Part shown: positions 1,579-63,099 of the stretch, piece by piece | Layout of the letters: each line of letters opens with the position of its first letter | Numbering within the stretch: the first letter of the stretch is position 1 | Origin: Heterodontus francisci | Taxonomy: Eukaryota | Length of the DNA: 64,000 nucleotides | Assembly: GCF_036365525.1 (NCBI RefSeq) | Contig: NC_090409.1 | Span: 39,194,437-39,258,436 of the forward strand | Direction: 5' to 3' | Notes under the pieces: model-generated | What the model saw: only the letters and a program-made list of their open reading frames with translations | What the model was told of the DNA's origin: nothing | Databases searched by the model: none | Made by a program: the position numbers and the translations under genes

Positions 1579-1699
1579 GTCCTGGACCCTCTACTGGATT
1601 GGTAGTTGGATTGGTCATCGCAATTCTGGTTCTTGTTTGCATAATTCTTGTTCTTCTTTGCATAATTCTGGTTTTCATAATCCAAAACCGACAAAGATG
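1579..1699 (+). CDS. Gene A transmembrane exon: (G)PGPSTGLVVGLVIAILVLVCIILVLLCIILVFIIQNRQR(W)
   Basis: tctctag acceptor and gtgagt donor; phase 1 to phase 2; hydrophobic stretch followed by basic residues; paralog of gene B TM exon. Confidence 0.88.
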
Positions 1700-2844
1700 G
1701 TGAGTTCCAGAATGATCTGCAGTTCCCATTGTTAATTCTAGTTTTGTTTTATTATATTTGGTGTTGTGGAAATGTTGTGTACACTGATACACTTTGTGCT
1801 GTGTAGGATGTTTCAATGCTGCATTATCCAGTCACTTCCAGCTTGTTGTCATCCTCTAGCTGCTGAACTGAAGGTGAAGAGCAGGAATGTGCGGCTCCCT
1901 CTATCACACAGTTAATAGACACTCGCCTAATCTCTGCAGCAAACAACTCACCAGCCTACACCTAAAATCCCCTTGTCCCCTCTCCTCTGACTTTTCACCA
2001 GCCTCTGATCCTTGCTCTGTTCCCCAGTCACTGACTCCATCCCCTTCCCTGGCCACTGTCTGAGGCTGAACCAGACTGTTCACAACCTCGGAGTCCTATC
2101 AGACCCTGAGCTGAGCTTCTGACTCCATATTCTCCCATCACTCAAATCCCACCTACCTCCGCTTCTGTGATGTACCCTGTGTCCACTCTCATCCCTTGAC
2201 CTGACCATCAGTGGTTTTGATCACTAACAATAAAATATGTTGCATTTCTCTGCCTCCCTCAACATCCACATCTCCCTGCCCATCTCTTGCCCATCTGCCA
2301 GTTGTGGGGGGGAAACTATTGCAGATTCTCTAACTCTGTCCTCTGACTCTTTTTTCCCCATCACAATATTTCTGCCTCCGTCAGCCTGTTTGGTCACTGC
2401 TGGGTCGGGTTTGATCACATCAGGGAATATCCTGTCCATCTGACTCCTCTCAATAATTCAGGATCAGTCTGGAGAGTCTGGACATTCCCAGCCTCCTCCT
2501 GTCTGATCTGATCCCCATCATCTTCAGCTCAGTGTTAACTGAGATCCTCATCAATTCTTCTTAATCTCCAATGTTGAGGTGAGCTGTCATTTTTCTATTG
2601 GTCTGGTTCCTCGGTCAGCACAGGTCCTGTGGAGTGTCCAGCTCTTGCCCATTGCCTCCTCTCCTCTGCACTCTGTGCTCCATCACCGTGCAGCTCCTGT
2701 GACCCATTTTCCAGCTGCCATTGGGGCCCAGGAGGTTGAGTGTAATTTAATCGGTCTGTGCTCCTGAACAGCTCCTTTACACACTTGTACAAAGTGTTGG
2801 ATTCTTTTAATGTAACCTGAACTCTGCTGTTTTTTCCCTCCCAG

Positions 2845-3013
2845 GAAAGCGAACAAACACAACATCAATCACAATGAAGCATCTAATGTCATCCCTTTGA
2901 CAGGGGTGACTTGTTTAGGTAGCAAGGTCCCATGTTTCACAACAGCACCTGAGCATCAGAATGGAGCAGCTGGAGAACAAAACCTTCTGGGGAACGGGGC
3001 TGTCCAGCACTAA
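2845..3013 (+). CDS. Gene A last coding exon, cytoplasmic tail: (W)KANKHNINHNEASNVIPLTGVTCLGSKVPCFTTAPEHQNGAAGEQNLLGNGAVQH*
   Basis: Polypyrimidine tract plus ccag acceptor; phase 2 matches the TM exon; open to TAA at 3011-3013; frame conserved in gene B despite a 6-nt indel. Confidence 0.8.
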
Positions 3014-3319
3014 CTGAGTTTACACTGCACTGAGCCTGGGTCAGGGAGGGAAAATCAGCCCAGTATTGTGGTTATCCAGTGAATCCTGGTGGAAAGTCTG
3101 AGATCGGGATCAACAATCACTTCCCACTCTGTACAAATCCCTCTGACCAGCAGAGTCTTGAGATAATCACCCAATGAAAGTTTTGTCCCGTTACTCGAAA
3201 ACCTGTCCGATTGATATTTCATTGTATCTCAGTATTACTGATACACACTGTGTCCAAACCCAGTCTCAGGAACACACAGGACCAACTTCAGCTGTGTAAC
3301 CCATTGATCACTCCCTGTG

Positions 3320-4470
3320 TGAGATGGTAACTTCCAAAGTATCCAAATGATGAGCGAGTGGTTTTATGAAAGTGACTCTGTTTTCCTAAATAATTTTTTT
3401 AAAAAAAGGAATTTCTAGTTAAGCTAAGTAAATGTTTTTTTAATGAAGAGGACAATGAGGGCTGATTGACCAGTGTTGCTCTTTGTCACCTGGCTGGGCT
3501 CGGCTTTGAACAGAAGCCATGGCAACAGAGGCAGAAATTGACAAGCCCAGTAACAACAGACAAGATCTGGGTGGGCAGAGAACTGCCAAGCTGTTTGGTT
3601 GTTCGTCAGTGCGTGTGTGATACCTTCTGGAAGGAGACAAAAGTCAAATGCTGCTGAAGTGCCAAAGAAGGACAGAAAAAGGAAAGAATTCCAAGGAAGA
3701 ACAGAAGACTACAACCCAGTGCTTTTACTTGCAACTCCCTCAAAGATTCTGAAGTTCAGTGTGTTAATTTGTCTTGTTCCTGCATTTCAACAAGGCCTGC
3801 TAATTTGCTTTTCAACACCGCCTGAAGAGAACTAATTCTGGAAGAATCCTTTTTAACAGTTGCTCGGACGTTGGACTGTCTGCAAGTTTGGTGCAGTGCG
3901 TCTCATCTGCTATTCTTTTAGGGTGGACACGTGATCTATTTGTGTTTTTGTCTGTAACAGAGCTCTAATCTAAAAATTCTTTTTATTTTTCCAGTTGACC
4001 GATATATGTATAAGAATATATGAACATATGAATTAGGAGCAGAAGTAGGCCATTCAGCCCCTTGAGTCTGCTCCGTCATTCAATAAGATGTGTTTGTGTC
4101 TCACATCCCACACTCCCATCTACACCTCCCCCACCGCCCCCCATAACCTTTGATTCCCTTGTCTAACAAGAATCTATCTGTCTCCACTTTAAATATATTC
4201 AATGATTCCGCCTCCACCACTTTCTGAGGCAGAATATATGTATATATGACTTTATTAAAAAAAAACTTCAGGTTGCATATTCAAAAATATGCTGGTATTT
4301 TTCTTTAGCTTTTTTTAAATAAAATTGTTAATTTTGGACTGTTAAGAGGGCTGGTTAGTGTGTTCTATTCTGGGGAATAATAGTGTGGGGAAACTTTTAA
4401 AGAATATGCTGTGACCTGTGGAGAAGTGGGACTGAATTAACAGTGCACACCTCCTGCTTTGGTCATATCA
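3320..4470 (+). mobile_element. Gypsy LTR (5' boundary approximate), interrupted by an antisense CR1 3' tail at about 4010-4230
   Basis: Ends ...ggtcatatca, followed by a degenerate tRNA-Pro PBS (tgggggctc at 4480) and gag; homologous copy at about 13650-14600. Confidence 0.7.
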
Positions 4471-4479
4471 ATATTTATT

Positions 4480-6810
4480 TGGGGGCTCTCTTTTTCCAGG
4501 ATAAACCAACGCTGACCAAGTTCAATTGTAAGTGGGTTATAATAATTGGAAAAGGGAATATAAAAAGAACCAGGTTTCGTGTGTCATGGAGTAACATTTA
4601 CACCACTGGAATGTCTTTAACAGCAGCTGCAACTTGTCTGGGGAAGGTGAATGTATCCCTCAGTGATTTGAGATACTTAACCAAGATGAAATTAAAGGAT
4701 TTGGCAGACCTGTTGACATTAGAGTTACAACCAGGGGCGAAGAAAGCAGGAATAATTGACATAATAGCCCTACATTTGAAATTGGAAGAAGAAAGCAAAC
4801 CAGAGGGTAATGCAGTTGAATTAACTAAAATTCAGTTACAGACAAAGCAACTGGAGCTTCAACAAGAAACAGAATTGGAAAAAACTTGAGGCTGAAGAAG
4901 AAATGTCAGTGGAAAAACTTGAATTTGCAAAAGAGGAAAGTGAAAAAGGGAGAGCATTTCAGAGAGAAAGAAAGAAGGGAATTTGAATTTTTTTTTAAAA
5001 GCTGGAACTAAAGTAACAGGGTGATCCTGACTCCAGGAAGAATCTAAGTCCAACCCAGGACACAGTGAAAAGCTGTTTAAATTGATACAAGCTCTCCCTA
5101 AGTTTGAAGAAAGGGACGTAGAGGTATTTTTCATTGCTTTTGAAACGATAGTTAAACAAGTGAAATGGCCAAAGGAAAGCTGAACACTGCTTATGCAAAT
5201 CAGGTTGATGGGCAGAGTTCATGAACTTTATGCCATGCTTTCTGCAGAGGCTTCCACAGATTGAGATGGTAAAAAAGGCCATTCTCACTGCGTACGAGTT
5301 AGTCCCTGAAGTTTACTGACAGAAGTTTCAGAACCTCTGGTGATTGGCTGGGCAGATTAACATAGAATTTGAGAGGGTAAAACAAATTAATTTTGATTGT
5401 TGGATACGAGCATTAAAGATGGAAACCACGTATGAGAACCTTAGAGAACGGATTCTCCTGGAAGAATTTAAGAATTCACTCCCTCCAGTTGTAAGAACTC
5501 GGGTAGAGAATCAGAAGGTTTCAACAGCCGACAGGCAGCAGAAATTGCTGCTGATTGAGTTTGTGTATAAACTCAAACCCTTTGTCCGTCACCTCCACAA
5601 ACCCAAGCAGGATAGGAGGTGGGAGAGTGAAAGGAAGGCAAGTAGCCGGGGACAAGAATGGACAGCTGGGAATGCACCAGGATCTCCTCCTTGGTCCAGA
5701 AAAGAAGATGCTGAGGGTGGGAGTGAGGTCCGCAAGCCTAAATGTTACCATTGTCACAAGGTGGGACATATTCGAGCAGATTGCTGGAAGTTGTGAATTA
5801 AACCCATGGGATTTAATACGGTGCATAAAGACAATGAAGAGAAAGAGGCCCTGACCGAGCATGTAGATCAGGCTGTAGTTCTGACTGCAGCTGTAAGGAC
5901 AAGTACAAAAACCACAGAGTGTAGGGGTTGTGAATAAGATACTGGAAATTCTTGTCAAAAGGAAAAGTAACTCTTATCCCGCGAGTGAGGCAGGCAAACC
6001 TATAATTATACTTAGGGATACAGGAGCCACCCAAACGTTTGCTGGGAAAAGGCATAAAATTTGCACCAGAGAGTGCACTGAATGCTAATGTTTTAGTGAA
6101 TGGTATTGATGGGGAGTGTATACCCCTACCTTAGAGTGTGATCTAATGTCTGGAATGGTAACTGTAGGAGTTGTTCATAGCTTGCCAGTAGACAGAGTTG
6201 ATCTACTCCTGGGGAAAGATTCCAGGACTTTTTCCTCGTGTAATAACCCGAGCAATGGCTAAACAAGTTCCATTGTCGGAGGTAAAATTGCCACCACAGT
6301 CAGGTAGTTGAATATATGAAACTATCTTTGGGGATTTAGATAATCCAAATGAAATATTTGATAAATCTTCTCTGATCACAGCTCGGCTAGCTGACCCAGA
6401 GTTGAAGAATGTGACACAAACAGCTCTATCAGAAGCTGAGGTAAAAGGAGTTCCAGAAGGCTCTGATATTGAAAATGGGATTGTGATGAGGAAGTGGAGA
6501 CCTTCTCACAGACCTGTGGATGAAGACTGGACAGTTCTTCATCAGATAGTGGTATCTCTAAAGTATCACCGGGAACTATTCAGGTTAGTGCGTGGGATTC
6601 CTCCAGCGGGACATATAGGGATCCGGAAGACCGAAACACATAGAAATCAACATTACTACTGGCCAGGTCATTCCAAGGACATGGTGCAGTTTTGTAAAAA
6701 GTGCCATACATTCCAGATTGTGGGAAAACCACAACCTGCCATAATTCCCATCCCAGTTATTGGGGAACCATTTAGTAGGGTGTTGGTAGACTGTGTAGGA
6801 CACTTAACAA
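4480..6810 (+). mobile_element. Degenerate Gmr1-type Gypsy internal region (gag/SCAN-like, zinc knuckle, protease, integrase N-terminus)
   Basis: LPKFEERDVEVFF, ILLEEFKNSLP, CYHCHKVGHIRADC, LRDTGA protease motif, then GHIGIRKT..C..C and PFSRVLVDCVG directly after protease (PR-INT order); stops and frameshifts. Confidence 0.85.
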
Positions 6811-6811
6811 A

Positions 6812-11330: not shown

Positions 11331-14300
11331 TCACACTACTGCTCCTGTGTGTCTGCATCGATTGCAGATAGAATTCACACAGTCTCTGCATTAGAAATAG
11401 AAAAGCTCAGCAATCTCACACAATATCAGCTGAGTCCACATTGCCTCACAGCTGATTCTTATTTCTAATCTTTACAGTGGCGAGTGTCTGACATTAAACT
11501 GAAATATCCCACAGCCTCTCTTCATATCTATCTCTTCAATTCAATCATTATGGATCTGACTGCTGTCATATATAATGTTTTATACACTTCCTACATTTCC
11601 TGTTCCTGATCTCTGTCTCTCCTGTTGAAATCTTGGCGCCTGTCTCGGGGAAGGAGCTGGGCTGTGATGCCTCCCACAGTCAAATAGCCTGTCTACATCC
11701 AGTGTAACACCAGAGAGGGCCTGGAGACCGCAGAACGGTCTGGAACGAAGGTCTTGGCCATAAACGAGTTCGTTTTGGTGTGTAATGTTGATTGGACAAT
11801 ATATTTAAAATTTGTACAAAAAAGGGATTTGGGGGAAGTGGTTCCTGAAGATCAGGTGTTGAGGAACAAGTCTGGATCCCTGATAATGAGTTACTCTGTC
11901 AACCTCCTGATTGATCTAATGCTGGGTCAGAGGGGTTTGATCTGGTTAGGCCCCATCTGGAGTCACTGTGTTCAGTCTGGGCACCGCCCTTCAGGATGGA
12001 TATATTGCCCGAGAGGGTGCAATGCAGATTCAGCAGAATGATACTGGAGTGAAAAGGGTTAAATTACAAGGACAGGTTGCACAGACGAGGCTTGTATTCC
12101 CTTTTCTATCAAAAATTAAAAGGTGATCTAATCGCTGTGTTTAAGGTAATTAAAGGATTTGACAGAATAAATAGGAGAGCCAACACAGATTAGATGGGCT
12201 GAACAGCCTCATTCTGAGTTGTAACTATTGTTTAATTGAGTTCTCTCCCCCTACATGCCCCATTCAGGTCAATAGCCCTGAACCAACATCACTTTAAATA
12301 AAACTGATGATCTGAATCATTATCACATTGCTGTTCATGGGATCTTGCTGTGCACAAGGTAGCTGCTGCATTTCCTACATTACAACAGTAACTACATTTG
12401 AAAAAGTACTTCCCTGACTGTGAAACACTTTGGGATGTCCTGAGGTGGTGAAAGACGCTATATAAATGTAAACTCTTTCTTTTATAGAGAGTACCAGAAA
12501 TGCTCACACTATCAAAGCTCGACAGTCCTGCCACATCCAGTCTTGAACGGTGGGGAACAATTAAACAACAGGCGGAGGAGGCTCCATGAACATCCCCATC
12601 CTCAGTGATGGGGGAGCCCAGCACCAGTGAAAAAGACCAGGCTGAAGTGATCACAACCATCTTCAGCTGTAAGTGCCGACTGGATGATCCATCCCGGCCT
12701 CTTCCTGAGATCCCACAATCACAGATACCGTCATCAGACAATTCAATTCACTCCAGTTAGGATCAAGAGACTTCCTGCCTGTACACAGCAGCATCTCTGT
12801 TCAGGCAGTGACAGACAGAGTCATTAAACATAACAAGACTGTACATTCACTAATATTAACACTGACTTCTCTTTAATCAGAGATTAAATCAAAAATTACA
12901 TATAGAAAAGTAACATTAATTATACAGAATAGAGGTACAGATATAGACAAAATCTATAGGACTCAGTTTCAATTGTAGAAAACATGTATAAAATATTTAC
13001 AGTATAAATTACACATAAAAACAGTGACAATGAGGACCTGGACTGCAGAGAGAGAGATCGGAGTCCAAGATATACAAATCATTAAAAGCTGGTGAACAGG
13101 CACAGATCCTTGAATTAATAAATATTGCTCGAGTGCAAAAGTGAGGACTTTCTGGTAAACCTTCATAAATTCACCAGTTTCAGCTTCAGCTGGAGTATTG
13201 AGTCTGGGGATCACACTTTAGGGAGGATGTCAAGGCTTTGGAGAGGAGATTTACTAGAATGGTTCCAGGGTGAGAGACTTCAGTAACAGAAACCACAGAA
13301 GGAGCCCATTCAGCCCATTGTGTCAACACAGCCGAAAAAACTGGCCGCCCAATATAATATGTGGAGACTGGAGAAGCCACAGGCAGTTTCAATCTATAAA
13401 ATATCTAGAAGATGGAATCGGTATATAAACAGTTACTGGCAATAATGTCGCTGCTGGTTTTGCCCAGTGGATGCTGCTGCACAGAGAGTTTCTGAAGCCT
13501 CTTCCCATGTTCACCACTGTGGGAGAACCATCGCTACAAGGACTGCAGTGGTTCAGGTACAGATGGACAATAAATGGGGCCCTGCCAGTATCACCCACAC
13601 TGAGAACAGGTTAATAAATGCATCACAAACTACCTGATGTTCCCACTGTTTGGACCGAGGCGGGAGGAGTGCACTGTTAATTCAGTCCCGCTTCTCCACA
13701 GATCACAATATATTCTTTAAGTTTTCCATTTGTTGAAACAATTCCCCAGAATAAAACACACTAACCAGGTTTCTTTACTAAACAAAATTAACAGATTATA
13801 AAACAATTCTTAACTAGTAATGCAGTAAAATAATATCACAGATCAAATTTTTAAATATCCAACATTAGATTTTAAAATGTCCCCTTTACCTTAGTTCCTT
13901 CACACTCACACATTCCTATACATAAATCAGTTAACTGGAAAAAGAAAAAGAATTTTTAGATTAGAGCTCTGTTACAGACAAAAACACAAATAGATCACGT
14001 GTCCACCCCAAAAAGAATAGCAGATGAGACTCACTGCACCAAAGAAGCAGACAGTCCAACGTCTAAGCAACTGTTACAGAAACTTCCAGAATTAGTTCTC
14101 TTCAGGCAGTGTTGAAAAGCAATTTAGCTGGCCTTGTTAAAATGCAGGAACATGACAAATTAACATGCTGAACTTCAGAGTCTTTGAGGGAATTGAGAGT
14201 AAAAGCACTGGGTTGTAGTCTTCTGTTCTTCCTTGGAATTCTTTCCTTTTTCTGTCCTTCTTTGGCACTTTAGTAGCACTTGACTTTTGTCTCCTTCCAG

Positions 14301-14905
14301 AAGGTATCACACACATGCACTGACTGACAACCAAACAGCTTGGCAGTTCGCTGCCCACCCAGATGTTCTCTGTTGTTACTGGGCTTGTCAATTTCTGCCC
14401 TTTGCCATGGCTTCTGTTCTAAGCCGAGCCCAACCAGGTGACAAACCGTTGCCAATCATCCCTCACTGTCTTCTTGAGTGAAAAACATTTAGCTTAATTT
14501 TAAATTCCTTTATTTTATTAAATAATTTTTTAAAAGTCACTTTCATAAAACCACTCGCTCATAAAGAGGATATTTTGGAAGTTACCATCTCACACAGGGA
14601 GTGATCAATGGGTTTCACAGCTGAAGTTGGTCCTGTGTGTTCCTGAGACTGGGTTTGGACACAGTGTGTATCAGTAATACTGAGATATAATGTAATATCA
14701 ATCGGACAGGTTTTCTAGTAAAGGGACAACACTGTCACTGGGTGATTATCTCAAGACTCTGCTGGTCAGAGGGGTTTGTGCAGAGTGGGAAGTGATTGTT
14801 GATCCCGATCCTGAGCTCAGACTTTCCACCAGGATTCACTGGATAACCACAATACTGGGCTGATTTTCCCCTCCCCGACCCAGGCTCAGTGCAGTGTAAA
14901 CTCAG

Positions 14906-15080
14906 TTAGTGCTGGACAGCCCCGTTCCCCAGAAGGTTTTGTTCTCCAGCTGCTCCATTCTGATGCTCAGGTGCTGTTGTGAAACATGGGACCTTGTGAC
15001 CTAAACAAGTCACCCCTGTCAAAGGGACGACATGAGATGCTTCATTTTGATTGATGCTGTGATGCTTTTGAACACAATTC
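14906..15080 (-). CDS. Gene B exon 7, cytoplasmic tail: (W)NCVQKHHSINQNEASHVVPLTGVTCLGHKVPCFTTAPEHQNGAAGEQNLLGNGAVQH*
   Basis: tttttttctcccag acceptor, phase 2, 58 codons to TAA. Confidence 0.8.
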
Positions 15081-16241
15081 CTGGGAGAAAAAAAACAGCA
15101 GAGTTCAGGTTACATTAAAAGAATCCAACACTTTGTACAAGTGTGTAAAGGAGCTGTTCAGGAGCACAGACCGATTAAATTACACTCAACATCCTGGGCA
15201 CCAATGGCAGCTGGAAAATGGGTCACAGGAGCTGCACGGTGATGGAGCACAGAGTGTAGAGGAGAGGAGGCTTATAGAGGAGGCAATGGGCAAGAGCTGG
15301 ACACTCCACAGGACCTGTGCTGACCGAGGCACCAGACCAATAGAAAAATGACAGCTCACCTCAACATTGGAGATTAAGAAGAATTGACGAGGATCTCGGT
15401 TAACACTGAGCTGAAGATGATGGGGATCAGATCAGACAGGAGGAGGCTGGGAATGTCTGTACTCTCCACACTGATCCTGAATTATTGAGAGGAGTCACAG
15501 ATGGACAGGACATTCCCTGATGTGATCAAACCCGACCCAGCAGTGACCAAACAGGCTGACGGAGGCAGAAATATTGTGATGGGGGAAAAAGAGTCAGAGG
15601 ACAGAGTTAGAGAATCTGCAATAGTTTCCCCCCCACAACTGGCAGATGGGTAAGAGATGGGCAGGGAGATGTGGATGTTGAGGGAGGCAGAGAAATGCAA
15701 CATATTTTATTGTCAGTGATCAAAAGCACTGATGGTCAGGTCAAGGGATGAGAGTGGACACAGGGTATATCACAGAAGCGGAGGTAGGTGGGATTTGAGT
15801 GATGGGGAGAATATGGAGTCAGAAGCACAGCTCAGGGTCTGATAGGACTCAGAGGTTGTGAACAGTCTGGTTCAGCCTCAGACAGTGGCCAGGGAGGGGG
15901 ATGGAGTCAGTGACTGGGGAACAGAGCAAGGATCAGAGGCTGGTGAAAAGTCAGAGGAGAGGGGCCAAGGGGATTTTAGGTGTAGGCTGGTGAGTTGTTT
16001 GCTGCAGAGATTAGGCGAGTGTCTATTAACTGTGTGATAGAGGGAGCCGCACATTCCTGCTCTTCACCTTCAGTTCATTAGCTAGAGGATGACAACAAGC
16101 TGGAAGTGACTGGATAATGCAGCATTGAAACATCCCACACAGCACAAAGTGTATCAGTGTACACAACATTTCCACAACACCAAATAGAATAAAACAAAAC
16201 TAGAATTAACAATGGGAACTGCAGAACATTCTAGAACTCAC

Positions 16242-16347
16242 CATCTTTGTCGCTTTTGGATTATGAAAACTATAAATCCCTGAAGAAGAAGAAGAAAAAG
16301 AATTCCGACAACCAATCCAACTACTGCTCCAGTAGAGGGTCCAGGAC
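16242..16347 (-). CDS. Gene B exon 6, transmembrane: (G)PGPSTGAVVGLVVGILFLLLLQGFIVFIIQKRQR(W)
   Basis: tctctag acceptor and gtgagt donor; 106 nt; phases 1/2. Confidence 0.88.
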
Positions 16348-30780: not shown

Positions 30781-30802
30781 GGGTGTGAGACACTGACAAT
30801 AC

Positions 30803-47714: not shown

Positions 47715-48015
47715 TAAAAATGGGGCTCTGATGAGGAAGTAGAGACCTCCTCACAGACTTGTGCAAGCAGAATGGACGGATGTTCAGCTGTTAGTAATAC
47801 CACCTCAGTATCGCCAGAAACTGCTAAGGTTAGCACATGAAATTCCTATAGTGAGACATGTGGGGATCTGGAAGATCAAATCACGTATAAATCAACATTA
47901 TTACTGGCCAGATTGTGGGAAAACTGCATCCTGCCATAAAACCAGCACCTCTAATTCCCATCCCAATTATTGGAAAAACATTTAGCAGGGTGTTGGTAGA
48001 CTGTGTAGGACCTTT
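47715..48015 (+). mobile_element. Gypsy integrase N-terminal fragment (family of 6470-6800)
   Basis: LLRLAHEIP..HVGIWK and PIPIIGKTFSRVLVDCVGPL. Confidence 0.8.
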
Positions 48016-48695: not shown

Positions 48696-51600
48696 CTGAA
48701 CCCCTTTAATACAGGAACCAGACTCTGGGTCAATCCGACTGAACCCCTTTAATACAGGAACCAGACTCTGGGTCAATCCGACTGAACCCCTTTAATACGG
48801 GAACCGGACTCTGGGTCGATCCGACTGAACCCCTTTAATACAGGAACCAGACTATGGGTCGATCCGACTGAACCCCTTTAATACAGGAACCGGACTCTGG
48901 GTCGATCCGACTGAACCCCTTTAATACAGGAACCGGACTCTGGGTCAATCCGACTGAACCCCTTTAATACGGGAACCGGACTCTGGGTCGACCAGGCTGA
49001 ACCCCTTTAATACAGGAACCGGACTCTGGGTCGATCCGACTGAACCCCTTTAATACAGGAACCAGACTCTGGGTCAATCTGACTGAACCCCTTGAATACA
49101 GGAACCAGACTCTGGGTCGATCCGACTGAACCCCTTTAATACGGGAACCGGACTCTGGGTCGATCCGACTGAACCCCTTTAATACAGGAACCAGACTCTG
49201 GGTCGATCCGACTGAACCCCTTTAATACAGGAACCGGACTCTGGGTCGATCCGACTGAACCCCTTTAATACAGGAACCGGACTCTGGGTCAATCCGACTG
49301 AACCCCTTTAATACAGGAACCGGACTCTGGGTCAATCCGATTGAACCCCTTTAATACAGGAACCGGACTCTGGGTCAATCCGACTGAACCCCTTTAATAC
49401 AGGAACCAGACTCTGGGTCAATCCGACTGAACCCCTTTAATACAGGAACCGGACTCTGGGTCAATCCGACTGAACCCCTTTAATACAGGAACCGGACTCT
49501 GGGTCGATCCGACTGAACCCCTTTAATACAGGAACCAGACTCTGGGTCGATCCGACTGAACCCCTTTAATACAGGAACCAGACTCTGGGTCAATCCGACT
49601 GAACCCCTTTAATACAGGAACCGGACTCTGGGTCAATCCGACTGAACCCCTTTAATACAGGAACCAGACTCTGGGTCAATCCGACTGAACCCCTTTAATA
49701 CAGGAACCAGACTCTGGGTCGATCCGACTGAACCCCTTTAATACAGGAACCGGACTCTGGGTCGATCCGACTGAACCCCTTTAATACAGGAACCGGACTC
49801 TGGGTCGATCCGACTGAACCCCTTTAATACAGGAACCAGACTCTGGGTCAATCCGACTGAACCCCTTTAATACAGGAACCGGACTCTGGGTCGATCCGAC
49901 TGAACCCCTTTAATACAGGAACCGGACTCTGGGTCGATCCGACTGAACCCCTTTAATACGGGAACCAGACTCTGGGTCAATCCGACTGAACCCCTTTAAT
50001 ACAGGAACCGGACTCTGGGTCGATCCGACTGAACCCCTTTAATACGGGAACCGGACTCTGGGTCGATCCGACTGAACCCCTTTAATACAGGAACCAGACT
50101 CTGGGTCGATCCGACTGAACCCCTTTAATACGGGAACCAGACTCTGGGTCAATCCGACTGAACCCCTTTAATACAGGAACCGGACTCTGGGTCGATCCGA
50201 CTGAATCCCTTTAATACGGGAACCGGACTCTGGGTCGATCCGACTGAACCCCTTTAATACAGGAACCGGACTCTGGGTCAATCCGACTGAACCCCTTTAA
50301 TACAGGAACCAGACTCTGGGTCGATCCGACTGAACCCCTTTAATACAGGAACCGGACTCTGGGTCGATCCGACTGAACCCCTTTAATACAGGAACCAGAC
50401 GCTGGGTCGATCCGACTGAACCCCTTTAATACAGGAACCGGACTCTGGGTCGATCCGACTGAACCCCTTTAATACAGGAACCGGACTCTGGGTCGATCCG
50501 ACTGAACCCCTTTAATACAGGAACCGGACTCTGGGTCGATCCGACTGAACCTCTTTAATACAGGAACCGGACTCTGGGTCGATCCGACTGAACCCCTTTA
50601 ATACGGGAACCGGACTCTGGGTCGATCGGACTGAACCCCTTTAATACAGGAACCGGACTCTGGGTCGATCCGACTGAACCCCTTTAATACAGGAACCGGA
50701 CTCTGGGTCGATCCGACTGAACCCCTTTAATACGGGAACCGGACTCTGGGTCGATCCGACTGAACCCCTTTAATACAGGAACCAGACTCTGGGTCGATCC
50801 GACTGAACCCCTTTAATACGGGAACCGGACTCTGCGTCGATCCGACTGAACCCCTTTAATACAGGAACCGGACTCTGGGTCGATTCGACTGAACCCCTTT
50901 AATACAGGAACCAGACTCTGCGGTCGCTCCGACTGAACCCCTTTAATACGGGAACCGGACTCTGGGTCGATCCGACTGAACCCCTTTAATACAGGAACCG
51001 GACTCTGGGTCGATCCGACTGAACCCCTTTAATACAGGAACCGGACTCTGGGTCGATCCGACTGAACCCCTTTAATACAGGAACCGGACTCTGGGTCGAT
51101 CCGACTGAACCCCTTTAATACGGGAACCGGACTCTGGGTCGATCCGACTGAACCCCTTTAATACAGGAACCAGACTCTGGGTCGATCCGACTGAACCCCT
51201 TTAATACAGGAACCGGACTCTGGGTCGATCCGACTGAACCCCTTTAATACAGGAACCGGACTCTGGGTCAATCCGACTGAACCCCTTTAATACAGGAACC
51301 GGACTCTGGGTCAATCCGACTGAACCCCTTTAATACAGGAACCGGACTCTGGGTCAATCCGACTGAACCCCTTTAATACAGGAACCAGACTCTGGGTCAA
51401 TCCGACTGAACCCCTTTAATACAGGAACCGGACTCTGGGTCAATCCGACTGAACCCCTTTAATACAGGAACCGGACTCTGGGTCGATCCGACTGAACCCC
51501 TTTAATACAGGAACCAGACTCTGGGTCGATCCGACTGAACCCCTTTAATACAGGAACCAGACTCTGGGTCGATCCGACTGAACCCCTTTAATACAGGAAC

Positions 51601-54600
51601 CGGACTCTGGGTCAATCCGACTGAACCCCTTTAATACAGGAACCAGACTCTGGGTCAATCCGACTGAACCCCTTTAATACAGGAACCAGACTCTGGGTCG
51701 ATCCGACTGAACCCCTTTAATACAGGAACCGGACTCTGGGTCGATCCGACTGAACCCCTTTAATACAGGAACCGGACTCTGGGTCGATCCGACTGAACCC
51801 CTTTAATACAGGAACCAGACTCTGGCTCAATCCGACTGAACCCCTTTAATACAGGAACCGGACTCTGGGTCGATCCGACTGAACCCCTTTAATACAGGAA
51901 CCGGACTCTGGGTCGATCCGACTGAACCCCTTTAATACGGGAACCAGACTCTGGGTCAATCCGACTGAACCCCTTTAATACAGGAACCGGACTCTGGGTC
52001 GATCCGACTGAACCCCTTTAATACGGGAACCGGACTCTGGGTCGATCCGACTGAACCCCTTTAATACAGGAACCAGACTCTGGGTCGATCCGACTGAACC
52101 CCTTTAATACGGGAACCAGACTCTGGGTCAATCCGACTGAACCCCTTTAATACAGGAACCGGACTCTGGGTCGATCCGACTGAATCCCTTTAATACGGGA
52201 ACCGGACTCTGGGTCGATCCGACTGAACCCCTTTAATACAGGAACCGGACTCTGGGTCAATCCGACTGAACCCCTTTAATACAGGAACCAGACTCTGGGT
52301 CGATCCGACTGAACCCCTTTAATACAGGAACCGGACTCTGGGTCGATCCGACTGAACCCCTTTAATACAGGAACCAGACGCTGGGTCGATCCGACTGAAC
52401 CCCTTTAATACAGGAACCGGACTCTGGGTCGATCCGACTGAACCCCTTTAATACAGGAACCGGACACTGGGTCGATCCGACTGAACCCCTTTAATACAGG
52501 AACCGGACTCTGGGTCGATCCGACTGAACCTCTTTAATACAGGAACCGGACTCTGGGTCGATCCGACTGAACCCCTTTAATACGGGAACCGGACTCTGGG
52601 TCGATCGGACTGAACCCCTTTAATACAGGAACCGGACTCTGGGTCGATCCGACTGAACCCCTTTAATACAGGAACCGGACTCTGGGTCGATCCGACTGAA
52701 CCCCTTTAATACGGGAACCGGACTCTGGGTCGATCCGACTGAACCCCTTTAATACAGGAACCAGACTCTGGGTCGATCCGACTGAACCCCTTTAATACGG
52801 GAACCGGACTCTGCGTCGATCCGACTGAACCCCTTTAATACAGGAACCGGACTCTGGGTCGATTCGACTGAACCCCTTTAATACAGGAACCAGACTCTGC
52901 GGTCGCTCTGACTGAACCCCTTTAATACGGGAACCGGACTCTGGGTCGATCCGACTGAACCCCTTTAATACAGGAACCGGACTCTGGGTCGATCCGACTG
53001 AACCCCTTTAATACAGGAACCGGACTCTGGGTCGATCCGACTGAACCCCTTTAATACAGGAACCGGACTCTGGGTCGATCCGACTGAACCCCTTTAATAC
53101 AGGAACCGGACTCTGGGTCGATGCGACTGAACCCCTTTAATACAGGAACCGGACTCTGTGTCAATCAGACTGAACCCCTTTAATACAGGAACCAGACTCT
53201 GCGGTTGCTCCGACTGAACCCCTTTAATACAGGAACCAGACTCTGTGTCAATCAGACTGAACCCCTTTAATACAGGAACCAGACTCTGCGGTCGCTCCGA
53301 CTGAACCCCTTTAATACGGGAACCGGACTCTGGGTCGATCCGAGTGAATCCCTTTAATACAGGAACCGGACTCTGGGTCGCTCCGACTGAACCCCTTTAA
53401 TACAGGAACCGGACTCTGGGTCGATCCGACTGAACCCCTTTAATACAGGAACCGGACTCTGTGTCAATCAGACTGAACCCCTTTAATACAGGAACCAGAC
53501 TCTGCGGTCGCTCCGACTGAACCCCTTTAATACAGGAACCGGACTCTGGGTCGATCCGACTGAACCCCTTTAATACAGGAACCAGACTCTGGGTCAATCA
53601 GACTGAACCCCTATAATACAGGAACCGGACTCCAGGTCGATCCGGCTGAACCCCTTTAATACAGGAACCGGACTCTGGGTCGATCCGACTGAACCCCTTT
53701 AATACTGGAACTGGACTCTGGGTCAATCCGACTGAACCCCTTTAATACGGGAACCGGACACTGGGTCGATCCGACTGAATCCCTTTAATACAGGAACCGG
53801 ACTCTGGGTCGATCCGACTGAACCCCTTTAATACGGGAACCGGACTCTGGGTCGATCCGACTGAACCCCTTTAATACAGGAACCGGACTCTGTGTCAATC
53901 AGACTGAACCCCTTTAATACAGGAACCAGACTCTGCGGTCGCTCCGACTGAACCCCTTTAATACGGGAACCGGACTCTGGGTCGATCCGAGTGAATCCCT
54001 TTAATACAGGAACCGGACTCTGGGTCGCTCCGACTGAACCCCTTTAATACAGGAACCGGACTCTGGGTCGATCCGACTGAACCCCTTTAATACAGGAACC
54101 GGACTCTGTGTCAATCAGACTGAACCCCTTTAATACAGGAACCAGACTCTGCGGTCGCTCCGACTGAACCCCTTTAATACAGGAACCGGACTCTGGGTCG
54201 ATCCGACTGAACCCCTTTAATACAGGAACCAGACTCTGGGTCAATCAGACTGAACCCCTTTAATACAGGAACCGGACTCCAGGTCGATCCGGCTGAACCC
54301 CTTTAATACAGGAACCGGACTCTGGGTCGATCCGACTGAACCCCTTTAATACAGGAACCGGACTCTGGGTCGATCCGACTGAACCCCTTTAATACGGGAA
54401 CCGGACTCTGGGTCGATCCGACTGAACCCCTTTAATACAGGAACCAGACTCTGGGTCAATCAGACTGAACCCCTTTAATACAGGAACCAGACTCTGCGGT
54501 CGCTCCGACTGAATCCCTTTAATACAGGAACCGGACTCTGGGTCGATCCGACTGAACCCCTTTAATACGGGAACCGGACTCTGGGTCGCTCCGACTGAAA

Positions 54601-55530
54601 CCCTTTAATACAGGAACAGGACTCTGGGTCGATCTGACTGAACCCCTTTAATACAGGAACCAGACTCTGGGTCGATCCGACAGAACCCCTTTAATACAGG
54701 AACCGGACTCTGGGTCGATCCGACTGAACCCCTTTAATACAGGAACCGGACTCTGGGTCGATCCGACTGAACCCCTTTAATGCAGGAACCGGACTCTGGG
54801 TCGATCCGACTGAACCCCTTTAATACGGGAACCGGACTCTGGGTCGATCCGACTGAACCCCTTTAATACAGGAACCGGACTCTGGGTCGATCCGACTGAA
54901 CCCCTTGAATACAGGAACCGGACTCTGGGTCGATCAGGCTGAACCCCTTTAATACAGGAACCGGACTCTGGGTCGATCCGACTGAACCCCTTTAATACAG
55001 GAACAGGACTCTGGGTCGATCCGACTGAACCCCTTTAATACAGGAACAGGACTCTGGGTCGATCTGACTGAACCCCTTTAATACAGGAACCAGACTCTTG
55101 GTCGATCCGACTGAACCCCTTTAATACAGGAACCAGACTCTGGGTCGATCCGACTGAACCCCTTTAATACAGGAACCGGACTCTGGGTCGATCCGACTGA
55201 ACCCCTTTAATACAGGAACCGGACTCTGGGTCGATCCGACTGAACCCCTTTAATACAGGAACCAGACTCTGGGTCGATCCGACTGAACCCCTTTAATACG
55301 GGAACCCGACTCTGGGTCGATCTGACTGAACCCCTTTAATACAGGAACCGGACTCTGGGTCGATCCGACTGAACCCCTTTAATACAGGAACCGGACTCTG
55401 GGTCGATCCGACTGAACCCCTTTAATACAGGAACCGGACTCTGGGTCGATCCGACTGAACCCCTTTAATACAGGAACCTTACTCGGTGTCGATCTGACTG
55501 AACCCCTTTAATACAGGAACCAGACTCTGG
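48696..55530. repeat. 43-bp satellite array, about 159 units (gactgaacccctttaatacaggaaccggactctgggtcgatcc)
   Basis: Uninterrupted tandem array with internal block duplications. Confidence 0.98.
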
Positions 55531-55609
55531 GTGGTATTGACTGGATGGCTGTGTGGAGAGCTGACTTGGACTGGATGGGCTGAATGGCCTCCTGTGCCTT
55601 CTATGACTC

Positions 55610-57550
55610 TCTCTAACATTCTTCCTTCAATGAAGACTGCAGGGGGGCATGCCAGCAGCAGGTATATCTCAAAATGCGGTGTCAACCCAGTGAAGCTACA
55701 ATCTAGGACCACTTGCATGTGAAACAGCATAAGCAGCGTGCGATAGACAGAGCTAAGTGATCCCAGAACCAATGGATCAGATGTAAGCTCTGCAGTCCTG
55801 CCACATCCAGTGGTGAATGGCGGTGGACCATTAAACAACAAACTGAAGGAGGTGGTTCCACAAATATCCCCATCCTCAATGATGGGGAAGTCCAACACAT
55901 CAGTGCAAAAGATAAGGCTGAAGCATTTGCAACAATCTTCAGCCAGAAGCGCTGAGTTGATGATCCATCTCAGCCTCCTCCTGAAGTCCCCAGCATCACA
56001 GATGCCAGTCTTCAGCCAATTTGTTTCACTCTGCGTGATATCAAGAAACGACTGAAGGCCCTGGATACTGCAAAGGCTATGGGCCCTGACAATATTCCGG
56101 CAATAGTACTGAAGACCTGTGCTCCAGAACTTGCCACACCCCTAGCCAAGCTTTCCAGTACAGCTACAACACTGTCATCTGCCTGACAGTGTGGAAACTT
56201 GCCCAGGTATGTCCTGTACATAGAAAGCAGGACAAGTCCAACCCGGCCATTTACTGCCCCATCAGTCTACTCTCAATCATCAGTAAAATGATGGAAGGTA
56301 TCATTGACAGTGTTATCAAGCAGCATTTGTTTAGCAATAACCTGCTCAGTGATGTTCAGTTTGGGTTCCATCAGGGCCACTCAGCTCCTGACCTCATTAC
56401 AGCCTTGGCTCAAACATGGACAAAAGAGCTGAACTCCAGAGGTGAGGTGAGAATGACTGCCCTTGATATCAAGGCAGCATTTGACCGAGTATGGCATCAA
56501 GGAGCCCTGGAAAAATTGGAGTGATTGAGAATCGGGGAAAAATTCTTCGCTGGTTGGAGTCGTATCTAACGCAAAGGAAGATGGTTGTGGTTGTTGGAGG
56601 TCAATCATCTCAGCTCCAGGACATCACTGCAGGAGTTCCTCAGGGTAGTGTCCTAGGCCCAACCATCTTCAGTTACTTCATCAATGACCTTCTTTCAATC
56701 ATAAGGTCAGAAATGGGGATATTCACTGATGATTGCACAATATTTAGCACAATTCGCGACTCCTCAGATACTGAAGCAGTCCGTGTAGAAATGCTGCAAG
56801 ACCTGGACCATATCCAGGCTTGGGCTGATAAGTGGCAACTAACATTTGTGCCACACAAGTGCCAGGCAATGACCATCTCCATTAAGAGAGAATCCAACCC
56901 TCTTCCCTTGACATTCAATGGCATTACGATCGCTGAATCCGCCGCTATCAACATCCTGGGTGTTACCATTGACCAGAACTGGAGTAACCATATAAATACC
57001 GTGGCTGCAAGAGCAAGTCAGAGGCTGGGAATCCTGCAGTGAGTAACTCACCTCCTGACTCGCCAAAGCCTGTCCACCATCTACAAGGCACAAGTCAGGA
57101 GTGTGACGGAATACTCTCCACTTGCCTGGTGCAGCTCCAACAACACTCAAGAAGCTCAACACCATCCAGAACAAAGCACTTGATTGGCACCCCATCTACA
57201 AACATTCACTCCCTCCACCACCGACGCACAGTGGCAGCAGTGTGTACCATCTACAAGATGCACTGCAGCAACTCACCAAGGCTCCTTAGACAGCACCTTC
57301 CAAACCCATGACCTCTACCAACTAGAAGGACAAGGGCAGCTGATGCATGGGAACACCACCACCTGCAAGTTCCCCTCCAAGTCACACACCATCCTGACTT
57401 GGAACTGTATCGCCGTTCCTTCACTGCCATTAGGTCAAAATCCTGGAACTCCCTTCCTAACAGCACTGTGGGTGTACCTACCCCACATGGACTGCAGCGG
57501 TTCAAGAAGGCAGCTCACCACCACCTTCTCAAGGGCAATTAGGGATGGGC
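55610..57550 (+). mobile_element. CR1-superfamily LINE, degenerate ORF2 RT and 3' end
   Basis: YCPISLLSIISK, QFGF, ALDIKAAFDRVWH, GVPQGSVLGP, FTDD. Confidence 0.92.
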
Positions 57551-60460: not shown

Positions 60461-60481
60461 ATGGATGGGAAAACACTGCAG
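60461..60481 (+). CDS. Gene C exon 1: MDGKTLQ
   Basis: ATG with cag|gtactg donor; paralog of gene B exon 1. Confidence 0.7.
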
Positions 60482-60826
60482 GTACTGTCAGTGTCTCACA
60501 CCCGGGGAGAGGGAGGGAGATGTGGGGGAAAGTTTCCCTCCCCAAGGATTCGCCTCTTTATTGTTTATCGCCCTCGAAACAGGAGGAGAATTTGTTCCAT
60601 TTCGGGGCTTTGTGTTTCTGACCCTGAGGCAGGGTCTCGTTTATAAAAGGAGAAATGTCAGACATTGGAGATGGAGCGAGAGAAACTGTGTTTAAACTGA
60701 AAATAAACACCTAGCTGTTAATCTTCACCCGGGGGTGGGGAACACAGTGACACAGCCCGGTTCAGAAATGGACATGAGCAGCAAGAAACTGTGGTAAAGG
60801 GGGGTAACTGTGTTTTCTTGTTGCAG

Positions 60827-60881
60827 GGACCCAACTTCCAGAAACTCCTCCTCCTGCTGCTGCTGCTAAATGCTGTTGCAG
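60827..60881 (+). CDS. Gene C exon 2, signal peptide: GPNFQKLLLLLLLLNAVA(G)
   Basis: ttgcag acceptor and gtaagc donor; in-frame 9-nt deletion relative to gene B. Confidence 0.85.
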
Positions 60882-62015
60882 GTAAGCACTGTGACTGCTC
60901 TCACATTTCAGCAGAGCTCGGGGCTGCTGGTGATATGGATTATATCAGGATTGATCTTCCTGGATGGTGCTAACCTTGTGAATTTATACAGACTGCAGTT
61001 AGCTATCTCCTGGAAAGAACATTTGTCTGGGTGTCTGGGACTGAAATCAGTAATGTGTATATTACTGGGGAATAGTCTTCATTATATCAGGAATTCATCT
61101 TGCTTTAAGGTGCTGTGTTCACTGTGAGTGGGCCCATTGAGGGAGTGGACACAGTCGGTTCACATTACACATAATGATCATGAGACCTGAAAGGAAGGCA
61201 GTTAATGTCTTCAGATTAACCCCTGTGATGTGAACAGTGGAATCTGGACACTGAGCAACACTCGGTGACACTGGGATGGGTGACTGGGGTCCAGTGGTAC
61301 TGGGATGGGGTCCTGAGCACTGGGATCAGGAGTCTGGGACAGTCCTGGATCAAATAGAACTGGGAATTGCCTCTGAGCATGGGGAGTAGGGTCATCAGGA
61401 CTGGGGGTTGTGTTTTGGGTCCTGGGAGGGGGCAGAGTCTGGCCGTATTGGGGTGAGGAGCAAGGTCTGACAGGTTAGTGGTGGAGGGAGATGAGGATCC
61501 ACATTACCTCGGCCCCTTTCAGACCATCAGGTGCAGCCTCACCCCCTACACAGTGTACTCGTCCGTCATTGTCCCCCCAACCTGTCCAAAGCCCTTTCCA
61601 CATCCTCGGGTACCCCCTCCCCCACCCGTTCCTGTCTTTACATTTCAGGGTCAGTTTTCTGCTCCTGAGCTCCACCTCACATTGTGCACCCCCAGTCTGT
61701 CATTGTTCTCCCAAAGTGGGGAGGTGGGCAGGGTGACCAATATCCTGATGTGTTCTCCCAGCATGTGTACAATGGGAAACACACGATTCAAAGTGCTGTC
61801 CAGCTGCTCTGTGGATACAAATATCCAGCACAAGCTGGTTTTAGTTGAAGGCCCTTAATGCCTGACCTTTAACCTTCCCACAGAAATGAAAGCAGTGAGT
61901 TACTGATCAGTGCTTCTTGTAAATCAAGCATCGCAGTGTAACCATGTGGAGCTTGGGATGGAATGTACCAGCAGGGAGGTTATATCTGTGGATAAATACT
62001 TTCAATCTTTTCCAG

Positions 62016-62348
62016 GTTACCCGTCTGTCCCAGTTTCTGGGTTCCTTGGGGAGCAGGTTGTGCTGCCCTGTATCTACAAAGGGAATGTCCCAGTCTCTGA
62101 ATTACAGGTAATTTGGTGGATATTCAATCGTGGAATTTTACACAAATTTATCGATGGGAACGATGATTTAACACAACAAGACCCATGGTTCAGAAACAGA
62201 ACAAACCTGTTCAAAGATCAACTGGAACAAGACAACTGGTCAATTATGATCTCTGACCTCAGGCAGTCAGACCAGAATGAGTATCAGTGTGAGATTCAAC
62301 AGAGGGAGACTCCAGTCTTTCATCAAGATATTCATCTCTTTGTAACAA
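62016..62348 (+). CDS. Gene C exon 3, IgV domain (B7/BTN/CD276-like)
   Basis: 333 nt, phase 1-1, canonical residues; donor aa|gtgaga is weaker than in the paralogs. Confidence 0.9.
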
Positions 62349-63060
62349 GTGAGAGGTTTCTGTTTCAGGTATTCTGCATTTACTCTCCGATTTTATGGGT
62401 ACGGTAGTGCAGTGGTTATGTTACTAGACTAGTAATCCAGAGGCCTGGTCTAATAATCCAGAGAATGTGAGTTCAAATCCCACCATGGCAATTTCAGAAT
62501 TTAAATTCAGTTTAAAATAAATCTGGAAATATAAAGTTGGTCCCAATAAAAGTGACCATGAAGCTGTTGGATTGTTGTAAAACCCAACTGGTTCACTAAT
62601 GTCCCTCGAGGGAAGGAAACCTGCCGTCCTTACCCGGTCTGGTCTATATGTGACTCCTGTCCCACATTAACCTGGTTGCCTTTTAACTGCCCTCTGAAGT
62701 GGCCGAGCAGGTCAATCAGTTTGTATCAAACTACTGGAAAGAAAAACAAGTATAAAACTGAACGGACCACTGGCTGTGACCCAGGAATCGAATCAGGACA
62801 CAGCAAAGGCAAACCCACGGTGCTATCAAGCTGCTCTCACTCTCCAGAAATGTGCTACATCTGTCTCCAGATGTTGGGGTGCAGGAAGTGGGGCCCATAG
62901 CACCATTTTTCACTCTGCCGACCCTGTTCCTGATCCTTCCTGATCAGTTTTCCCGAGTCTCGTTCCTCCCATGATGTGTTTACCCACAGCCCTATAGAGT
63001 CTTTGAACATTTCTACAGTTTGTTTCACACACAATACTAAACACATGATGTTTTCTTTAG

Positions 63061-63099
63061 AGCGAGCTCGTACACCGGTACCGGACACACCTGTACCAG
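63061..63099 (+). CDS. Gene C exon 4, linker: (K)RARTPVPDTPVP
   Basis: ttttctttag acceptor and gtaaat donor. Confidence 0.75.

Follow-up and report, generated by a model that had tools for sequence, protein, structure and literature searches.

The window, i.e. the whole stretch of 64,000 nucleotides of horn shark (Heterodontus francisci) DNA analysed here, shows three of the 19 genes of a B7-derived multigene family, which is real, evolves like the CEACAMs, is putative in its function and is apparently undescribed; no paper describing a shark V-only B7-like family was found in the literature searched. The complete cluster extends over 485 kb and contains 22 V exons, all of them open. The sequence supports a family that is non-rearranging, IgC-less and spliced. 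The variation falls mostly on the predicted binding face, thus the family likely chases fast-changing partners, e.g. pathogen proteins.

Genes of the window and their splicing

The exon models of the genes A, B and C were rebuilt from the sequence (Table 1). The joined exons of gene B (G03) gave a leader-V-stalk-V-TM-tail protein of 351 aa, identical to XP_067874622.1 (P0062), an automatic RefSeq horn shark model, and this confirmed the product predicted for B by the sequence-only reading. The two-V design is not the family norm, since one V is present in 16 genes and two only in three. In the case of gene A the window holds only the TM and tail exons, its leader and single V being 1.3-6 kb upstream (V exon at C39:39192796-39193140). 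The TM exon (64406-64532) and the frameshift-shortened tail (from 66292) of gene C are located past the window end. The three V exons of the window were all recognised as Pfam V-set (E 5e-14 to 6e-11), and the size of the stalk exon among the paralogues is 39-69 nt, in 15-nt steps. The orphan leaders at 29693-30808 are possibly a remnant or an alternative 5' end of B. A group of env-like ORFs at 42.3-44.1 kb gave no Pfam match.

Table 1. Positions of the gene features, counted from the first nucleotide of the window
Feature	Position	Strand	Evidence or remark
Inverted duplicate, 92% identity	1-4023 vs 13906-17914		V-to-tail segment common to A and B
Gene A (G02) transmembrane exon	1579-1699	+	Model identical to RefSeq XP_067874667.1 (P0074)
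Gene A exon of the cytoplasmic tail, up to the stop	2845-3013	+	Without tyrosine
Gene B tail exon to stop	14906-15080	-	58 aa; without tyrosine; C-terminal motif conserved
Gene B transmembrane exon	16242-16347	-	GxxxG; core without charged residue; family joints reach this exon
Gene B V2 exon, A-type V	19193-19519	-	Pfam V-set
Gene B Pro/Thr-rich stalk exon, 39 nt	20182-20220	-	V-to-stalk joint in at least 3/4 runs
Gene B V1 exon, B7-type IgV	21546-21869	-	Pfam V-set; B-F disulfide; two N-glycan sequons
Gene B leader exon 2, signal peptide core	23005-23068	-	Joint seen in contigs
Gene B 81-bp minisatellite in leader intron	23144-23599	-	Fills the intron after leader exon 1
Gene B leader exon 1, coding part with start codon	23622-23642	-	The following intron is skipped in 4/4 runs
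Orphan leader exons with minisatellite, no own V	29693-30808	-	Exon rebuilding
Orphan leader exon 1 and 81-bp minisatellite	35200-35914	+	Repeat search, exon rebuilding
Orphan leader exon 1 copy	40014-40117	+	Exon rebuilding
Orphan leader exons 1 and 2	47403-47647	-	Exon rebuilding
Gene C (G04) leader exons	60461-60481, 60827-60881	+	Exon rebuilding
Gene C V exon	62016-62348	+	Pfam V-set; matches RefSeq model P0018
Gene C stalk exon	63061-63099	+	Exon rebuilding

Splice joints were taken from the public contigs of four runs, none of which is on record as RNA. The predicted junctions were recovered in part: leader, leader-to-V, V-to-stalk and stalk-to-TM joints of the family were present, and a TM-skipping joint (stalk directly to tail) was found in run X1 as well as in the RefSeq isoforms P0095 and P0096, while the stalk-to-V2 joint of B was neither among the joints or loose ends listed for the four runs (a listing that is short of 27 loose ends) nor among the best 15 of 154 joints. 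Since these contigs drop rare forms, the missing joint does not mean absence. Two candidate exons were rejected. Each V exon is preceded by an apparently perfect 11-nt mini-exon, which is phase-incompatible and is bypassed by the leader-to-V joints; the 47-bp minisatellite between V and TM, considered as a mucin exon, has a unit which is not a multiple of 3, and the RefSeq models join V to TM.

Organisation of the cluster

The cluster was built by recent segmental duplication. Identity reaches 99.4-99.5% between duplicated blocks of 24-29 kb. A single contig carries four copies of the A cassette and three of the B cassette, and exon-level mosaics were found among the genes. Three groups of V exons are nucleotide-identical, while 18 of the 22 are distinct, with identities down to 69%. 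Practically all modelled splice sites are canonical (186/187). The region is rich in repeats and large duplications. The view of an expanding, diversifying family was upheld. The proposed birth-and-death evolution is evident as far as birth is concerned, but death is limited to orphan leaders and four shortened tails. Similarly, the alternating orientation holds for A(+), B(-) and C(+) but not strictly over the cluster (-+-+--+-+-+---+---+).

On contig C39 the cluster lies between XRCC1/KCNN4-like and IRG genes (XRCC1 at 38.84 Mb, an SK-channel exon at 39.146 Mb, an IRG GTPase at 39.72 Mb). Three B7-type genes with V-C structure are 0.5 Mb away from the cluster. XRCC1 is a marker of the CEACAM locus, according to an excerpt of PMC3628338, and the block from XRCC1/KCNN4-like to IRG is the one holding CEACAMs elsewhere. 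A search for UPAR/LY6 synteny gave no match anywhere, which is evidence neither way. The cluster is not linked to the MHC: of 64 MHC_I matches, the 60 that are placed on chromosomes all fall on C29, four are on small contigs and none is on C39. The BTN/MOG-like V-C genes, together with MHC class I, are on another chromosome (contig 29).

Domains and sequence motifs

As had been claimed, neither an IgC nor a B30.2 exon was detected. Four shark IgC queries had no match over 650 kb and duck BTN1A1 as query matched only the 22 V exons, while at control loci these queries did give IgC exons; a B30.2-fused long family member was not found among the proteins of 518-2000 aa, which is a weak test. Rearranging receptors and non-rearranging VJ genes (UrIg, NKp30) have split V-J with RSS or a J-type FGxG, and C1 domains. 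In the shark genes strands A to G of V are in one exon without FGxG, and there is no C1 exon. Cys15 and Cys88 are invariant in the 18 distinct horn shark V domains.

No ITIM or ITAM was present in the 19 horn shark tails. The tail without tyrosine, reported earlier for B, was confirmed and was also seen in A; two of the 19 tails (G05 and G17) contain one tyrosine each, in no motif. In other sharks 40 of the 41 TM-bearing models had no ITIM/ITAM if tyrosines at the TM edge are disregarded; the remaining one is a fused PRDM model. GxxxG occurs in all 19 TM exons, and acidic or His residues in three, not conserved. Since both ITIM/ITAM and a conserved TM charge are lacking, the 'receptor' half of the earlier ligand/receptor claim is doubtful.

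Relationship and distribution of the family

When the family profile was compared with solved structures, all 44 PDB matches at E<=1e-11 were CD276, VTCN1 or PD-L1 and none was BTN or MOG; thus, of the suggested B7/butyrophilin/MOG-type V, B7 is nearest by similarity. No CEACAM was among the PDB matches listed. The AlphaFold model of V1 (pLDDT 87) had PD-L1 and B7-H4 as best structural matches (TM-score about 0.85), and the V1 homodimer prediction scored 0.02. In a V tree made without BG and without mammalian sequences, the 18 distinct horn shark V domains formed one clade (support 95/85). The best tree placed the family apart from BTN/MOG and left its sister group unplaced, the AU test rejecting a sister relation neither with CD276 (p=0.148) nor with BTN (p=0.305). 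The horn shark has a separate CD276 orthologue on contig 35 and the family makes its own clade, which rules out the family being the CD276 orthologue, i.e. a one-to-one counterpart of that single-copy B7 gene. No confident VTCN1, HHLA2 or NCR3LG1 orthologue was identified in the horn shark. Identity with the MHC-linked BTN/MOG-like genes is ruled out by the location of those V-C genes on contig 29.

The family was found in 11 other sharks, five shark orders in all, and is multi-copy in several lineages; some V types are common to different genera. In four other sharks a second, degenerate Ig domain was seen as ectodomain. The family is shark-wide, but the 'cartilaginous fish' scope is not borne out, as neither rays nor chimaeras yielded a member; bony fish gave no member either. 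The claim that the family is uncharacterised agrees with the literature searched, but its members are already in RefSeq, where automatic naming has labelled them, among others, CD276 homolog, MOG-like, VTCN1-like, ICOSL-like, SCN4B-like or JAML-like.

Variation on the predicted face

Mean entropy at outward GFCC' versus outward ABED positions (12 each) was 0.87 versus 0.21 in the horn shark (p=0.004) and 1.73 versus 0.48 in other sharks (p=0.0002), a post hoc contrast with GFCC' positions picked by predicted strand alternation after the variability was seen. Ig V domains are commonly variable on the front face, and the strand-E N-glycan could itself keep the back face constant. Among 12 V exons taken as representatives, divergence was 21-31% in the windows C-C' and F-G, and 0.6-2.7% (5') and 1.6-5.5% (3') in the adjoining intron windows. 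Since other sharks, too, show a conserved 5' flank (in the read-through models P0008, P0033, P0034), it may be kept by constraint and not by conversion. The dN/dS of the rest of V was 0.42 (below 1, 2dlnL about 11.5), indicating that it is under purifying selection. For the face dN/dS was 1.4-2.0, where the excess over 1 is only suggestive and not significant (2dlnL 1.4 if the FG loop is included, and 3.4, p about 0.07, if it is left out). Such tests are biased by recombination.

Discussion

Our preferred explanation, a tentative one, is that the genes encode predicted type I surface glycoproteins which bind partners through GFCC', and which were multiplied and varied as fast-changing, probably pathogen-derived proteins engaged this sheet. 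The predicted plan is one or two B7-type V domains carried by a short Pro/Thr stalk, followed by a TM helix and a tail without tyrosine motifs. The family would have arisen from a V-C B7 gene that lost its IgC exon. Partners are likely bound through the front GFCC' sheet, and its engagement likely drove the copies to multiply and vary. Through gene conversion the framework and the flanks may have stayed uniform, with the face evading this process. The proteins would act as ligand or decoy and not as signalling receptor, with the TM-skipped forms as putative secreted decoys. This explanation is supported by the fold, the face entropy, the contrast between introns and face, the dN/dS of the rest of V against that of the face, the single clade, the tails free of ITIM/ITAM, the TM-skip and the parallel with Xenopus CEACAMs, for which the accessible part of PMC5112662 describes a variable CC'C''FG face, a conserved opposite sheet, conversion and opposite orientations as a pathogen arms race. 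Against it are the non-significant excess of the face dN/dS, the post hoc choice of face positions, the front-face variability common to Ig V domains, the possible effect of the strand-E glycan, the conserved 5' flank of other sharks, the lack of an activating/inhibitory pair in the cluster, unlike in CEACAM paired receptors, and the unplaced sister group. In a bolder version, which is possible but rather unlikely, the V of a B7 checkpoint ligand would have given rise in sharks, independently and within the CEACAM/LRC block, to a receptor/decoy family that is CEACAM-like and chased by pathogens. One leader-stalk-TM-tail chassis would carry exchangeable ectodomains (a single B7 V, two of them or none, or else a second, degenerate Ig), and an ancestral B7 cluster that human 19q13 has lost would persist in this block.

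The B7-type V with its ligand-like tail free of tyrosine motifs, the nearby V-C B7-type genes, the V types common to different genera and the several shark CD28-family receptors without assigned ligand (in the part of PMC11599192 available) would also suit host-to-host ligands co-evolving with diversified lymphocyte receptors (NKp30-like, CD28-family, gamma-delta TCR), one paralogue per lymphocyte subset, as in B7H6, Skint/BTNL and chicken BG. A conserved single receptor should, however, hold GFCC' constant, and this is the most variable part; the cluster is, moreover, not MHC-linked and lacks B30.2. We consider such ligands rather doubtful. It is improbable that these are adhesion or structural Ig molecules (MOG/MPZ/SCN4B-like role) whose copies and face variation come from a duplication-prone region and relaxed constraint. 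The V-stalk-TM layout, the universal GxxxG, a face dN/dS compatible with 1 and the repeats and duplications of the region would agree with this, but every V exon is open, the splice sites are canonical with a single exception, the rest of V is under purifying selection, divergence peaks in two coding segments far over the adjoining introns, and several shark lineages are multi-copy. Finally, the near-identical blocks and V groups could suggest that there are only a few genes, most of the copies being an artefact of the assembly (haplotype duplication). This is very improbable, since the A and B cassettes on one contig are more than two haplotypes allow, most V exons are distinct and other sharks hold several paralogues too.

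A 19-member IgC-less B7-type family with a variable face, present in five shark orders and in a non-MHC CEACAM block next to V-C B7 genes, is a missing piece of B7/BTN history. It offers a defined set of targets for two questions, namely whether pathogens hijacked checkpoint ligands at an early stage of jawed vertebrate history, or whether sharks use a ligand code of the BG/Skint type. The assorted RefSeq names for one family mislead shark transcriptome work.

Comparison with known systems

The family resembles the B7 family (CD276/B7-H3, VTCN1/B7-H4, PD-L1, ICOSL) in V sequence and fold, split leader, type I membrane topology and a tail without ITIM/ITAM. B7 ligands are normally few, conserved V-C proteins, whereas the shark family has no IgC, 19 near-identical copies and a front face that is variable, not conserved; it scores about 33 bits per domain against CD276, compared with 123 bits for the true orthologue. 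With butyrophilins, MOG, chicken BG and mouse Skint it shares the B7-related V and the multigene expansion, and with MOG and BG the V-only ectodomain, but it is without IgC and B30.2 and off the MHC chromosome. Against MOG the BTN/MOG-like genes of contig 29 reach 113 bits and the shark V 44 bits, and neither the heptad tail of BG nor the second hydrophobic segment of MOG was evident by eye in the shark family. Paired activating/inhibitory receptors differ by their ITIM/ITAM tails and conserved charged TM residue. CEACAM N domains have no B-F disulfide and are followed by C2 domains, whereas the shark V is B7-type with this disulfide, without C2 domains and without ITIM/ITAM pairs; the syntenic block (near XRCC1) and the mode of evolution are common to both, the latter including CC'FG variation, gene conversion, mixed orientation and soluble forms in the accessible parts of PMC5112662 and PMC7042247. 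The teleost tandem-V 'BTN-like/CD276-like' proteins are also IgC-less single or tandem B7/BTN-type V proteins, but with at most 68 bits per domain, compared with at least 173 for full-length family members, and with different stalk, TM and tail. Birds, mice and teleosts have expansions comparable to this one, so that the shark family is no new kind of system.

Gene content and growth of the cluster

The window holds three V exons, two in gene B (- strand) and one in gene C (+ strand), together with the TM and tail exons of gene A (+ strand), the V exon of which lies 1.3 kb upstream of the window. Canonical splicing of gene B yields the 351-aa protein predicted earlier, which agrees in every residue with XP_067874622.1, a RefSeq protein of Heterodontus francisci. 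When the horn shark genome was searched, 69 matches were obtained; 22 (78-100% identity, at least 198 bits) all lay at 39.177-39.645 Mb of the contig C39, while the other 47 scored at most 58 bits. Modelling of 650 kb of contiguous sequence gave nineteen family genes, of which 16 have a single V and 3 a pair. The cluster of the sequence-only reading is real, and it extends beyond the three genes noted there. Every one of the 22 V exons is open, and the modelled splice sites are canonical in 186 of 187 cases; a common C-terminal motif ends 15 of the 19 genes, and 4 tails are shortened by frameshift. Since 25 leader-2 exons were counted for 19 genes, some of the leaders are orphans. The reported lack of an IgC exon was confirmed: no part of the region matched any of four IgC queries, and duck BTN1A1 as query matched V exons only, other loci being positive as controls. 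The RefSeq three-V models P0054 and P0060 join the leader and V of the downstream gene G05 to gene B over about 60 kb, possibly by read-through or as annotation chimeras.

Identity between duplicate blocks in the cluster is 99.4-99.5% for direct blocks of 24-29 kb and 92-97% for inverted ones; gene A is present four times and gene B three times. The genes are mosaic. One V type was found with three TM types, G06 and G18 have TM and tail in common with different V, and gene B combines a G19-like V1, an A-type V2 and a G12/G14-type TM. The part of V outside the GFCC' sheet (the face) gained 36 log-units when fitted to a tree of its own instead of the whole-exon tree, as expected from recombination. 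The first intron contains an 81-bp minisatellite that has none to dozens of units among the paralogues and could be a seed of unequal crossover.

Location of features in the window, on C39 and elsewhere in the horn shark genome (G000)
Feature	Location	Strand	Remark
V-C B7-type genes (L061, L062, L093)	C39 38.58, 38.67, 38.71 Mb		two with 82% identical IgC, V unlike
XRCC1	C39 38.84 Mb
SK-channel exon	C39 39.146 Mb		most divergent of four loci; probably KCNN4
Family cluster	C39, between SK-channel exon and BTG gene
BTG gene	C39 39.658 Mb
IRG GTPase	C39 39.72 Mb
L063	C39 41.72 Mb		more CD276-like gene
81-bp minisatellite	window 23144-23599, 29848-30774, 35263-35914
Pre-V intron, about 160 nt	window 21870-22030, 19520-19673, 61855-62015		ahead of every V exon
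43-bp satellite	window 48696-55532		159 copies, 94% identical
Larger copy of 43-bp satellite	near C39:39.56-39.57 Mb		in duplicated block
Broken ORFs	window 42306-44106	-	by eye like retroviral envelope or fusion protein; no Pfam match
Intergenic ORF fragment	window 5344-5793		gag-like (weak SCAN match)
Intergenic ORF fragment	window 47743-47982		integrase-like
Intergenic ORF fragment	window 56485-57039		LINE reverse-transcriptase-like
Lone tail-like fragment	G000:C1:216009465-216009629		with stop; far from cluster
Multi-copy B7/BTN-type V cluster	G000:C28:15.5-36 Mb
Multi-copy B7/BTN-type V cluster	G000:C29:5.5-12 Mb		BTN-like V-C; on MHC chromosome

Splicing

The splice joints were judged on contigs of public sequencing runs; seven runs, none recorded as RNA, contain the stretch, and the four examined provide joint evidence from two samples of two studies. 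In these contigs the predicted introns are skipped at GT-AG ends, at the leader 1-leader 2 joint in all four runs, at the V-stalk and stalk-TM joints in three of four each, and from stalk to tail, omitting the TM exon, in one of four. Because the paralogues cross-map, the joints demonstrate splicing at the level of the family, not gene by gene. The gene B-specific stalk-V2 joint was not seen among the joints and ends shown for the four runs' contigs; two-V RefSeq models with the same stalk, all predictions, exist in other sharks (e.g. P0006, P0007, P0010). TM-skipped RefSeq isoforms (P0095, P0096) have a C-terminus that departs in one residue from that given by the frame derived for gene B. 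The pre-V intron is near-invariant among the paralogues; the same stretch is conserved in other sharks, holds an apparently unused acceptor-donor pair, and is possibly a splicing regulator or a conversion tract.

Relationships and distribution

The predicted structure of V1 is an IgV (pLDDT 87), with PD-L1 and B7-H4 as the closest structures. A tree built from 64 family V and 16 other horn shark V (representatives of the 47 non-family matches) unites the family in a single branch (90/98) and groups the 18 distinct V of horn shark as one clade (95/85). With 10 family and 15 other V, two long branches having been removed, a reduced tree gave 96/99 for the family and a weak grouping (72/78) with two V-C genes of C39 and one gene of C41. 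The trees were made without mammalian, BG or NCR3LG1 sequences; within them the V sequences place the family as a distinct branch, but AU tests did not reject a sister position of either BTN (p=0.305) or CD276 (p=0.148). Horn shark has a separate CD276 on C35, and its BTN/MOG-like V-C genes are on C29, the chromosome of MHC class I; the cluster itself is on C39. By the features tested the family is related to B7 but, being without IgC, does not belong to it, nor does it belong to BTN, MOG or CEACAM. It is automatically annotated and apparently unrecognised as one family; no description of it was found among the papers that full-text searches brought up, and the main B7-evolution papers and the supplements of shark genome papers may list members.

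XRCC1, IRGQ/IRGC and KCNN4 are adjacent in human 19q13.31. L061, L062, L093 and L063 are a small B7 cluster in this 19q13-like block. Origin of the family from a local V-C B7 gene by IgC loss is plausible; no similarity of leader, TM or tail was found between the family and the neighbouring V-C B7-type genes. PMC3628338 gives XRCC1 as a marker of the CEACAM locus.

At a threshold of E<=1e-10, a profile search of 8000 candidates retrieved 72 proteins; 68 came from 12 sharks of five orders, and the remaining 4 scored at most 70 bits. No ray or chimaera member was among the 72, and divergent ray members below 110 bits could escape the listing of the full HMMER search. Among the best 150 of its 4376 matches, down to 110 bits, non-family domains scored at most 68 bits vs at least 173 bits for full-length family members; the 10 matches identified were 5 shark family or chassis (leader-stalk-TM-tail frame) members, 1 other horn shark B7-type gene and 4 bony-fish proteins. 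In most species the members are all on contigs of one length and so are probably clustered. One basking shark family model is a fusion with a PRDM7/9-like gene; in horn shark, genes of this kind are found 1.1 Mb away from the cluster.

The family stalk-TM-tail carries a different ectodomain in four other sharks (P0163, P0172, P0215 and P0039, from epaulette, basking, small-spotted cat and whale shark), P0039 having both. It stands alone or ahead of a V domain, and P0163 and P0039 also have the family leader. For the second ectodomain a degenerate Ig fold is predicted, with a domain pLDDT of 75-89, and its Foldseek matches are generic V/I-set domains; it was looked for in horn shark and not found.

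Variation of the V domain and possible function

Identity among the 22 V exons of the cluster ranges from 69 to 100%. The 12 outward C, C', F and G positions are far more variable than the 12 outward A', B, D and E positions (0.87 vs 0.21 bits in horn shark, 1.73 vs 0.48 in 46 other-shark V); these positions were taken from predicted strands and the strand topology after the alignment variability had been seen. The DNA diverges by 21-31% in the C-C' and F-G windows vs 0.6-5.5% in adjacent intron windows, the 5' flank being no neutral yardstick because it is also conserved in other sharks. The dN/dS of the rest of V was 0.42, significantly below 1, that of the face with the FG loop 1.38 (not significant), and that of the face without FG 1.97 (p about 0.07). 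Since the face values do not significantly exceed 1, the term diversifying, used in the sequence-only reading, holds for the pattern of variation, and positive selection on the face is at most suggested.

The proteins have a signal peptide, glycosylation sequons, a stalk, a GxxxG TM and a tail which, as stated before, is free of tyrosine motifs; the C-terminal tail motif was matched, as a short pattern, in 27 of 55 other-shark models. Such proteins would offer the V domain to partners in trans, with GFCC' as the binding surface, and would themselves signal little, and many variants may be maintained because the partners change quickly. A pathogen-driven ligand or decoy is our tentative reading of the face variation. 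Co-evolution with host lymphocyte receptors, which is compatible with a pathogen-driven ligand or decoy, appears less likely, and adhesion-type genes under relaxed constraint are the least probable of the three. For the pathogen-driven reading, the closest described dynamic to that proposed for the shark family is the pathogen-receptor race of the CEACAM proteins, as portrayed in PMC5112662 and PMC7042247.
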